Made by a program: the position numbers and the translations under genes. Below the pieces are notes generated by a model, which was not told the DNA's origin, made no database searches, and saw nothing but the letters and a program-made list of their open reading frames with translations. Positions 49,114 to 49,710 of a stretch of DNA of 64,000 bases are shown here, in pieces. Every line of letters starts with the position of its first letter. The stretch's first letter is position 1. This stretch comes from a bacterium (GTDB lineage Bacteria; UBA8248): assembly GCA_965203325.1 (NCBI GenBank), contig OZ241875.1, forward strand, positions 4,064,001 to 4,128,000. Reading direction: 5' to 3'.

Positions 49114-49599
49114 ATGGTGGACGGCGAGGCAGCGGAGCAGTTCATCGACAAGCTCGACAACATGCCTGCAGACGAGGCGCGAGCGTCGATACTCGAGGAG
49201 ATGAGGAGTGCGGGGTTCCGTAGGCACGTATCTGGTGCGGCCTACGCGGCCTGGCCCGCTGCGCGACTCACCCGTTCCGTCCAGAGCGCCATGAGCGCCG
49301 AATCCCCCACCGTCCGGCTTTCGCCAGAGACCGCGATCAAGCAGGCCGAGCGGCATTCGGACGTGGTTCCCGAGGACTACTTGCGCGTACAGCGGATTTT
49401 GGACGAGGGGCGGGTGTTTCGCTCGGCCGTCAGCTCACGGGCGATCATGGGCTTCATCGAGGAAGACGGGAAAATGTGGCGAGCCGTGGTGAAAACGACG
49501 CGGGACGGCCGGGAAACCTACCTGACGACGTTGCACCGCGCACAGGATTATGATCTGAGGAGCGCGATTAGGAATCTCGAGGAGATCGGGAGGGAATAA
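49114..49599 (+). CDS. PBECR2-like (barnase/EndoU/colicin E5-D/RelE fold) nuclease domain, resembling a phage MuF toxin C-terminus
   Basis: VRLSPET..KQ..RH.D..PEDY..VQ.ILD.G...W.AVVK.T.DGRE.YL.TLHR; family recognised from memory, no HMM run. Confidence 0.65.
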   Translation: MVDGEAAEQFIDKLDNMPADEARASILEEMRSAGFRRHVSGAAYAAWPAARLTRSVQSAMSAESPTVRLSPETAIKQAERHSDVVPEDYLRVQRILDEGRVFRSAVSSRAIMGFIEEDGKMWRAVVKTTRDGRETYLTTLHRAQDYDLRSAIRNLEEIGRE

Positions 49600-49675
49600 A
49601 AAAGCGGCGCCCGGCGGGCCACAACCCCCGCACTCTCCCGAAGGCATGAGGCGATTGCGAAATGACTCGGGCGCC
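49600..49675 (-). ncRNA. Putative ~70-nt tRNA-shaped small RNA convergent with the nuclease gene
   Basis: Sigma70-like promoter upstream, 8-bp end-closing stem GGCGCCCG/CGGGCGCC, internal hairpins, U-run after the 3' stem. Confidence 0.55.
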
Positions 49676-49681
49676 AAGAAA

Positions 49682-49710
49682 AATATACGACACGGGGCGA
49701 TGAAAGGCAA
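49682..49710 (-). promoter_or_regulatory. Sigma70-type promoter TTGCCT-N17-TATATT
   Basis: Minus strand ttgcct ttcatcgccccgtgtcg tatatt; predicted +1 falls on the first G of the RNA stem. Confidence 0.6.

Follow-up and report, generated by a model that had tools for sequence, protein, structure and literature searches.

In a 64,000-nucleotide stretch of a bacterial chromosome (contig OZ241875.1, positions 4,064,001 to 4,128,000; hereafter the window), the open reading frame (ORF) ORF161 (49114-49599, plus strand) encodes a predicted stand-alone RNase-like domain of the BECR fold, and a 70-nt RNA gene (core 49675 to 49606, minus strand) lies tail-to-tail with it directly past its stop codon. 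Comparative analysis indicates that the RNA belongs to a new family of structured RNAs that is well supported by comparison whatever its function, and that it is genetically coupled, across lineages and phyla and in unrelated hosts, to the BECR-type domain found at the C-terminus of MuF phage head proteins. Our preferred reading, to which we give a probability of roughly 45%, is that the RNA would act as an inhibitor or immunity factor of the BECR RNase, in principle like the RNA of toxin-antitoxin (TA) systems of type III.

The window RNA is predicted, from its sequence and from the covariance models R1 and R2, to form a three-way junction. An 8-bp closing stem, P1 (49675-49668 with 49613-49606), is followed by a 17-nt single strand, by P2, a C(UUCG)G hairpin (49650-49633), by one base, and by P3, a 5-bp hairpin stacked directly on P1 (49631-49614), while a pseudoknot pairs 49659-49654 with 49625-49620 (RNA positions 17-22 with 51-56), joining the strand between P1 and P2 to the P3 loop. 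A promoter scan places a sigma70-like site, TTGCCT-N17-TATATT, upstream on the same strand (49710-49682, with TTGCCT at 49710-49705 and TATATT at 49687-49682), leaving 6 nt between TATATT and the first base of P1 (a distance of ~7 nt). P1 is followed by GC and a run of six U residues (49605-49598), probably the 3' terminus of the RNA for the window variant; the stop codon of ORF161 is TAA followed by an A-run, and the U-run is the complement of both. An earlier note on this DNA had described ORF161, the promoter, the 8-bp stem, the UUCG hairpin, the 5-bp hairpin and the U-run, and all of these elements are present in the sequence as it had placed them.

By itself, the window sequence does not lift the promoter or the RNA above chance. 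The fold has a z score of -1.69, with 11 of 200 shuffles folding equally well, and scanning 48900-50400 gives this one promoter site, where shuffled sequences give 0.7 +/- 0.9, and nothing in a simple terminator scan. Rfam has no family matching the window RNA at E <= 10 or six other RNA-bearing loci at E <= 1, and no tandem repeat is present in 48800-50200, where the RNA is single-copy.

Comparison with other loci is what supports the RNA. A DNA search finds a second copy in the same genome (G000:C1:3187545-3187615) that is 75% identical to the window RNA, differs from it in ways that are largely compensatory in P1, P2 and P3, and has a promoter, TTGACC-N17-TAATCT, at the same distance. The covariance model R1, built from both copies of the window genome, finds these two there and has matches in 10 of 101 related genomes (own included), all of one genus; 9 of the 22 other species of that genus are positive, as against none of the 78 remaining genomes. 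Only two sequence types occur within the genus, type A, which is that of the window (6 loci), and type B (5 loci, one of them truncated at both P1 ends). Variable columns in type A number 1 of 70 in the RNA, 17 of 61 upstream and 8 of 32 downstream, and in type B 3 of 70 in the RNA and 35 of 60 upstream (downstream columns were not counted). Moreover, a contig from an RNA library has 16 differences to the window, and none of the 11 that are listed falls in 49606-49675. Such a near-frozen core amid drifting flanks argues that selection acts on the RNA.

Covariation was counted on nine distinct rows from the 14 RNA-bearing loci then known, after five whose RNA is identical to that of L004 or L005 had been dropped. 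In these rows 94.0% of cells are paired, compared with 82.4% in shuffles (0 of 500 reach 94.0%), and 9 of 25 pairs change on both sides, a number equalled in 4 of 500 shuffles; slid controls give at most 48.7% paired cells and at most 3 pairs changing on both sides. Two of the pseudoknot pairs change on both sides (C-G to U-A, and A-U to G-C). P1 and the pseudoknot also contain G-U pairs, which would appear as A-C mismatches on the other strand, and because they fit the promoter strand only, this should be the functional strand. Across loci the loop reads UUCG, UGCG or CUUG. The RNA is thus best described, on comparative grounds, as a three-way junction that is conserved and has both a pseudoknot and a loop of UNCG type. 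The compensatory second copy, the covariation, the low variation and the recurrence beside homologous genes elsewhere all bear out the original suggestion of a structured RNA. An exact-pattern scan of 185,579 species genomes returns eight loci, seven of them in the genus of the window; the eighth, L016 (Saprospiraceae), has no covariance-model match and is attributed to chance, as is L036, the sole match of a degenerate pattern scan in IMG/VR. L039 in G020, a weak R2 match (27.8 bits) within coding sequence, was dropped.

In all variants the -35 element, N17 spacer and -10 element stand at a constant distance from the RNA, and the spacers and the sequence upstream diverge. The predicted promoter is therefore conserved across variants, and its geometry suggests that the RNA is transcribed from a sigma70-type promoter of its own. 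Short U-runs after P1 are also present in variants C, D and F4 and are absent from B, E and F1-F3.

The coupling of RNA and nuclease domain extends well beyond the genus. There are 19 coupled loci, comprising six of the same genus, two in the genome G049, the metagenome contig L030 and ten of the type of Ochrobactrum phage POA1180; the RNA is convergent to the domain gene in 19 of 19 and is only a few bases from the stop codon in 18, the remaining locus being L030, where it is ~180 nt away. Gaps of 1-10 nt between stop codon and RNA are found in lineages as distant as an alphaproteobacterial phage and the phylum of the window. A search of this phylum's 51 genomes with alignment A5 (75 sequences, hand-picked from homologue searches) found domain homologues in five. 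G049, which belongs to a different family, has the RNA on the opposite strand at 2 of 2 full MuF loci, L025 (protein of 398 aa) and L028 (381 aa, shortened by a frameshift), with scores of 37.5 and 40.1 bits for R1 and of 66 and 69 bits for R2. From the RNA end to the called stop codon is 7 nt in L025 and ~60 nt in L028, where the frame is broken; a short run of U residues overlaps the original stop codon's complement, the promoters read TTGACC-N17-TAAATT or TTGACG...TATATT, and the mutual homology of the two copies stops ~19 nt upstream of the RNA start. L030 encodes a 303-aa protein that starts inside the MuF domain (Pfam profile position 34) and ends with an ORF161-like domain, and its convergent RNA scores 75.7 bits and has a UGCG loop instead of UUCG.

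The head morphogenesis protein of POA1180 is 30% identical to ORF161, and a 308-nt unannotated gap separates its gene from the protease gene. The first 68 nt of this gap hold the RNA on the opposite strand (28.8 bits; E 4e-7 in 501 nt and 1.7e-5 in 19 kb), with TTGCCT-N17-CATATT upstream, and its unconstrained fold is the three-way junction (z = -2.45). POA1180 and nine IMG/VR relatives (protein identity 56-100%) have the RNA at the same place in 10 of 10 cases, with promoters of the form TTGNNN-N17-CATAWW (CATATT, CATAAT or CATAAA) conserved amid diverged sequence. Compensatory changes affect two pairs of P1, the base of P2, and P3; 91.7% of cells are paired and four pairs change on both sides, compared with none in slid controls. 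A related-locus search with alignment A8 returned no viral relatives and only two metagenome loci, and single-protein locus queries returned one partial locus for L025 and none for L030.

No conserved protein ORF occupies the position of an immunity gene in the window or in the G049 copies, as had been claimed for the window. The sole plus-strand ORF past the ORF161 stop codon (49646-49825, 59 aa) overlaps the RNA gene, and the two G049 copies have no ORF in common at this position.

Several observations concern the neighbourhoods of these loci. In L030, the segments 973-2100 and 3335-3640 flank the MuF fragment and RNA, and their three-frame translations repeat short peptides in the manner of an array of clustered regularly interspaced short palindromic repeats; a transposase-like ORF lies further upstream, and between the nuclease stop codon and the RNA there is a 42-aa ORF whose ribosome-binding site is good. 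The 220-aa homologue P0007 has an N-terminal segment, fused to the nuclease domain, that resembles the membrane-like ORF beyond the RNA in L025 (706-1155), which hints at recombination or a gene-call artefact at a module boundary.

ORF161 itself is poorly covered by family databases. It matches no Pfam family at E <= 1, including PBECR1-5 and hence PBECR2, and a sequence-profile search of the PDB gives nothing at E <= 10. Weak matches in PHROGs, NCBIfam and PADLOC are treated as noise, and phrog_4808 (E 0.0091) and Csa5/Cas11a (18.9 bits versus a cut-off of 53) are at that level. Searching 1.84 billion representatives yields 474 homologues at E <= 0.001. In a domain scan of 23 of the 150 listed homologues, mostly long ones, Phage_Mu_F lies ahead of the ORF161-like domain in 14 (E <= 0.01; 13 above the Pfam cut-off), PT-TG is present on one, and the sole PBECR match is PBECR1 on P0119 (E 0.0057; 17.6 bits versus a cut-off of 27.6). 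The proteins of L025, L030, L040 and L041 also carry Phage_Mu_F. Because the residues of ORF161, from the first onward, align to the interior of longer proteins, and because Phage_Mu_F stands upstream in homologues, ORF161 is the C-terminal part of a MuF-type head protein, in line with the MuF origin proposed earlier. It has no N-terminal Phage_Mu_F of its own, the feature by which MuF toxins are recognized.

AlphaFold (AF2), supplied with alignment A5, gives a model with a predicted local distance difference test score of 96.1 and a predicted template modelling score of 0.90 over all 161 residues, in which helices (71-80 and 86-98) precede strands (100-103, 110-117, 120-128 and 135-143). A wide VIA structure search with this model is headed by CdiA-CT NC101 (5i4q_A; Z 6.1) and a Salmonella toxin (Z 5.8), followed by BrnT (3u97_A; Z 5.6) and colicin D (5znm_B; Z 5.2) and then by RelE, YafQ, HigB and ParE; the best Foldseek match in the PDB is likewise the RNase toxin BrnT (3u97; E 0.01, probability 0.99). 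The modelled fold therefore resembles a BECR-type RNase fold, at modest match scores. Of the label "PBECR2-like nuclease" in the earlier note, the BECR-type fold is upheld by the AF2 model and by the BECR toxins that head the VIA search, and the PBECR2 assignment is not supported by a profile match. Residues K76, H81, T135 and H141 are invariant among the close homologues of alignment A8, and equivalents of His81 and His141 are retained in every RNA-linked member aligned. This His pair matches the colicin-like BECR active site in the accessible part of a recent preprint (bioRxiv 10.64898/2026.08.28.747851), and the available text of Iyer et al. (2017; PMC5512222) places a His at the helix end and an alcohol residue and a His on the last strand of PBECR domains, with which the ORF161 residues agree. 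By model and sequence, then, ORF161 looks like an active RNase. Two homologues that lack this His pair, in phage B23 (L042) and in L031, gave no RNA match.

We read the pair in the window as a piece of a Mu-like prophage head gene that has become domesticated, consisting of a complete C-terminal domain and the RNA. Together they form a 714-bp cargo between 276-nt direct repeats (91% identical, spacing 990) derived from the 3' end of an alpha/beta-hydrolase gene (48207-49097): copy A (48837-49112) comprises this 3' end and 15 nt, and copy B (49827-50102) is the native, orphaned 3' end. The copies differ at 16 synonymous third positions and at the stop codon, and their 86 encoded residues are identical; the two therefore diverged as working genes in different lineages. 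At the empty site (in G012 and others) the hydrolase gene runs straight into the sequence that follows copy B, and such a genome matches copy A up to the stop codon only. Since the empty site continues from the hydrolase into the copy B flank, copy B is native and copy A arrived with ORF161 and the RNA. This comparison, and the alignment of ORF161 to longer proteins, agree with the proposal that the pair is left over from a larger phage gene.

The nuclease gene has not fared as well as the RNA. Of the 6 type A loci, 2 have an intact ORF161; G010, G014 and G021 share a 384-bp in-frame deletion (junctions q996/1002 to q1370) flanked by a 17-nt direct repeat (49192-49208 and 49576-49592 in the window), and one locus has a 5' truncation and retains no more than the final 32 positions of the profile. 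In a contig from metatranscriptome run X17, 49150 is joined to 49463, a 312-bp in-frame deletion of ORF161 distinct from the 384-bp one, and in L028 the domain gene is frameshifted and the RNA retained. Between G000 and G011, ORF161 shows seven synonymous and eight non-synonymous codon differences, all eight of the latter at residues <= 85. The nuclease gene thus erodes as the RNA is held constant.

Type B takes this further, in an arrangement that the earlier note had not foreseen, the RNA without any nuclease gene; a profile search of all loci never found a type B RNA beside the domain. The sequence directly 3' of P1 differs between type B loci, and the setting looks like a variable island with the RNA as its constant part. 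On the same strand and downstream, two loci have a SocA_Panacea antitoxin-like gene and a 117-aa ORF, two have a GHKL-like ATPase and a DUF4325 STAS-like protein, and one has neither pair. These neighbours are seen at L004 1758-2651 (in the own genome, ~G000:C1:3187800-3188700) and at L011 68-1320, and a leader of ~85 nt is common to both downstream arrangements.

On the preferred reading, the RNA would bind the RNase domain and hold it inactive, as an inhibitor or as a decoy substrate, and would thereby serve as immunity factor or antitoxin for a nuclease carried in the phage virion; made constitutively from a prophage or its remnant, it would shield the cell from its own copy and from those that related phages inject. 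If this is true, protection from incoming copies would explain why the RNA is near-invariant where ORF161 is lost or, for allele B, has never been seen, in the manner of orphan immunity genes. The fuller proposition that the RNA is an immunity factor for a virion-borne RNase whose stand-alone specificity alleles form a heritable anti-phage shield seems to us possible and somewhat unlikely.

A number of observations weigh against the inhibitor reading. Four of the five type B genomes (G016, G005, G020 and G013) have no detectable domain, and the reading therefore needs the added assumption of protection from an incoming toxin. In G008 (L026 and L032) the domain is internal to an 887-aa polyvalent protein, and no RNA is found in the locus or in 3.1 kb downstream; the Azospirillum locus L041 retains both His residues and has no model match. 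Functional phages have the RNA gene within their late operon, between F and protease, a position equally natural for an antisense RNA. The covariation rests on about five independent variants in an alignment fitted to the model, the pseudoknot columns were picked after the sequences had been seen, and the z scores of single-sequence folds range from +0.66 to -2.45 across loci and are mostly unremarkable. All structural matches of ORF161 are modest (Z <= 6.1), Foldseek returning nothing from the PDB at E <= 0.001. Finally, four metatranscriptome runs hold parts of the stretch as contigs, which give no strand, ends or expression. Other domain loci also gave no RNA match: G029 (L027), where a transposase-like gene interrupts the gene, L029, an 85-aa domain fragment, the Helicobacter prophage L043, Dulem virus 31 (L044) and L045. 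The gaps of L041 (344 nt) and L042 (273 nt) fold with z scores of -0.77 and -0.47. That of L041 (2329-2672, on Azospirillum argentinense plasmid p3) is unannotated, follows a minor head protein gene and has on its opposite strand TTGCGC-N17-TACATT and a GC-rich segment whose end coincides with the stop codon, which may be a diverged or different RNA.

Because nuclease or late-operon mRNA must read through the RNA gene, the small RNA is perfectly complementary to the 3' untranslated region or to the F-protease spacer, and it could be a cis-antisense regulator, either type I-like or a form of operon punctuation, that triggers mRNA cleavage or silences leaky late transcription in lysogens. This would suit the uniformly convergent orientation of the 19 coupled loci, the location of the POA1180 RNA within the head morphogenesis-protease gap, and the absence, by inspection of the sequence and a simple terminator scan, of a plus-strand terminator between the ORF161 stop codon and the RNA gene. 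We nevertheless think it unlikely, since pure pairing needs none of the compensatory changes that keep the helices, UNCG loop and pseudoknot, the G-U pairs indicate one functional strand, the L030 RNA lies far from the stop codon, and the RNA is near-invariant without a target at four type A and five type B loci. The same retention without a nuclease gene weakens the idea that the MuF C-terminal domain has the RNA as a working partner, whether as processed substrate, as cofactor or guide, or as RNA packed in the virion. A cofactor or cargo would be expected to degenerate after loss of the protein, and instead the protein decays and the RNA stays; furthermore, the homologues without His residues, which are predicted RNA binders only, gave no RNA match. 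What recommends a working partner is the tight genetic coupling across phyla, the regular occurrence of the domain in Mu-like F proteins, where it is not merely a swapped-in toxin tip, and the description, in the available text of PMC5512222, of the phage Mu gp30 C-terminal domain (MuF-C) as an inactive PBECR predicted to bind RNA, with RegB discussed as precedent. On balance we regard this explanation as quite unlikely.

The RNA could instead be independent of the nuclease, a phage moron or host regulator whose adjacency to MuF genes reflects conserved phage gene order, and allele B, strongly conserved without a nuclease and found upstream of the SocA_Panacea pair, of the GHKL-like ATPase and DUF4325 pair, or alone, would sit well with this. 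The repeated capture of the pair and its adjacency to the stop codon weaken the case: two independent remnants (the window and L030) kept just domain and RNA from a whole prophage, the spacing of 1-10 nt recurs in distant lineages, and homologues without the catalytic His residues are also without the RNA. An independent RNA is accordingly improbable in our view. Least plausible is a DNA-level element, such as a site for recombination or packaging, or a GC-rich palindrome that arose by chance. The single-sequence statistics are weak, as such an origin would allow, and the break points of rearrangements in type B loci lie exactly at the P1 3' end; a DNA element would not, however, call for compensatory changes in four helices, G-U pairs, exchange of UUCG, UGCG and CUUG loops and a promoter at fixed distance, and there are no partial copies in the flanks as there would be for an attachment site. 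We consider it highly improbable.

The closest parallel to an RNA inhibitor of ORF161 is provided by type III TA systems (ToxIN, CptIN and TenpIN), in which, according to the accessible parts of the literature (PMC8860590, PMC5772629, PMC3401426), an endoribonuclease is checked by an adjacent structured, pseudoknotted RNA, as may be the case here, where inhibition is putative. The toxin fold here is BECR rather than ToxN-like, with no match to ToxN/AbiQ, CptN or TenpN in Pfam or PADLOC, and the RNA is a single, convergent unit with its own promoter, whereas in type III systems it is a tandem array, upstream and co-transcribed; in addition, the module is here part of a phage virion protein gene. 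In this last respect it resembles the MuF polymorphic toxins, in which, as far as the available text of Jamet et al. (2017; PMC5576092) shows, a C-terminal nuclease-type domain is joined to a Phage_Mu_F protein encoded after the portal gene and a protective factor is expected directly downstream. Where those toxins would have a small immunity ORF, the present loci have an RNA gene on the opposite strand, and ORF161 has lost its MuF part. With the PBECR and MuF-C domains of Iyer et al. (PMC5512222), as far as its available text goes, ORF161 shares a BECR core of helix then strands, the His/alcohol/His residues, and the occurrence of both MuF fusions and solo versions; it differs in matching no Pfam PBECR model, and that text mentions neither a linked RNA gene nor immunity proteins.

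A literature search that excluded most subscription journals did not turn up an RNA partner or RNA-based immunity described for MuF or BECR domains, and no RNA equivalent of orphan immunity was found. Convergent type I systems are known from Bacillus prophage-like elements, where the RNAs of txpA/RatA and bsrG/SR4 overlap the 3' end of the mRNA and the toxins are small membrane peptides. They have in common with the pair in the window a small RNA gene convergent to a toxin gene and an association with prophage remnants; the counterpart of the toxin in the present pair is an enzyme-like domain, and the RNA stops short of the stop codon or at it. For contact-dependent inhibition, Rhs and type VI secretion toxins, orphan immunity genes are familiar, in that the protective gene outlasts the toxin and stand-alone copies sit in variable islands, although these encode proteins and the present element is an RNA.

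MuF head proteins that carry a nuclease domain at the C-terminus are common among temperate phages, and tolerance by producers and lysogens is known only for protein immunity. If the RNA does neutralize the nuclease, RNA-based toxin neutralization would extend beyond the three type III families, to another nuclease fold and to virion-delivered effectors, and a recurrent unannotated gap in Mu-like head modules would be explained. Small orphan RNAs in defence islands could then serve as anti-phage shields, amounting to orphan immunity in RNA form and to a novel type of anti-phage defence. The idea can be put to a direct test, since a cultured temperate phage, POA1180, belongs to the family.

The RNA had also been described as tRNA-shaped, and this holds for the overall architecture, with its closing stem, stacked 5-bp hairpin and pseudoknot between loop and strand, and not for details: the RNA has no T-loop, TTC loop or CCA, and ARAGORN calls no tRNA genes in the window. 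Local alignments to the genome's 55 tRNAs are short, and only the GGCGCC start of the tRNA-Cys acceptor stands out, the first six base pairs of the tRNA-Cys(GCA) acceptor stem (GGCGCCA/UGGCGCC; G000:C1:1576628-1576702) being shared with P1. Given 55 tRNAs and GC-rich stems, this may be chance, and beyond the architecture and this identity there is little to recommend a tRNA decoy, which we regard as a weak lead. A role as tRNA-like integration site was rejected, as the 1.5-kb flanks contain no partial copies.

Elsewhere in the window, clusters of near-identical palindromic units (GGGTCGCATAnATGCGACCC, GGGCCGCATATATGCGGCCC) at 47115-47184 and 51863-51937 bracket a trpC-hydrolase-monooxygenase stretch and look like repetitive extragenic palindromic (REP)-type intergenic repeats. 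A few kb from the RNA pair, 52667-53788 (plus strand) encodes a 373-aa protein with DUF4172, Fic/DOC and a C-terminal helix-turn-helix-like domain, and this region is missing from some relatives.

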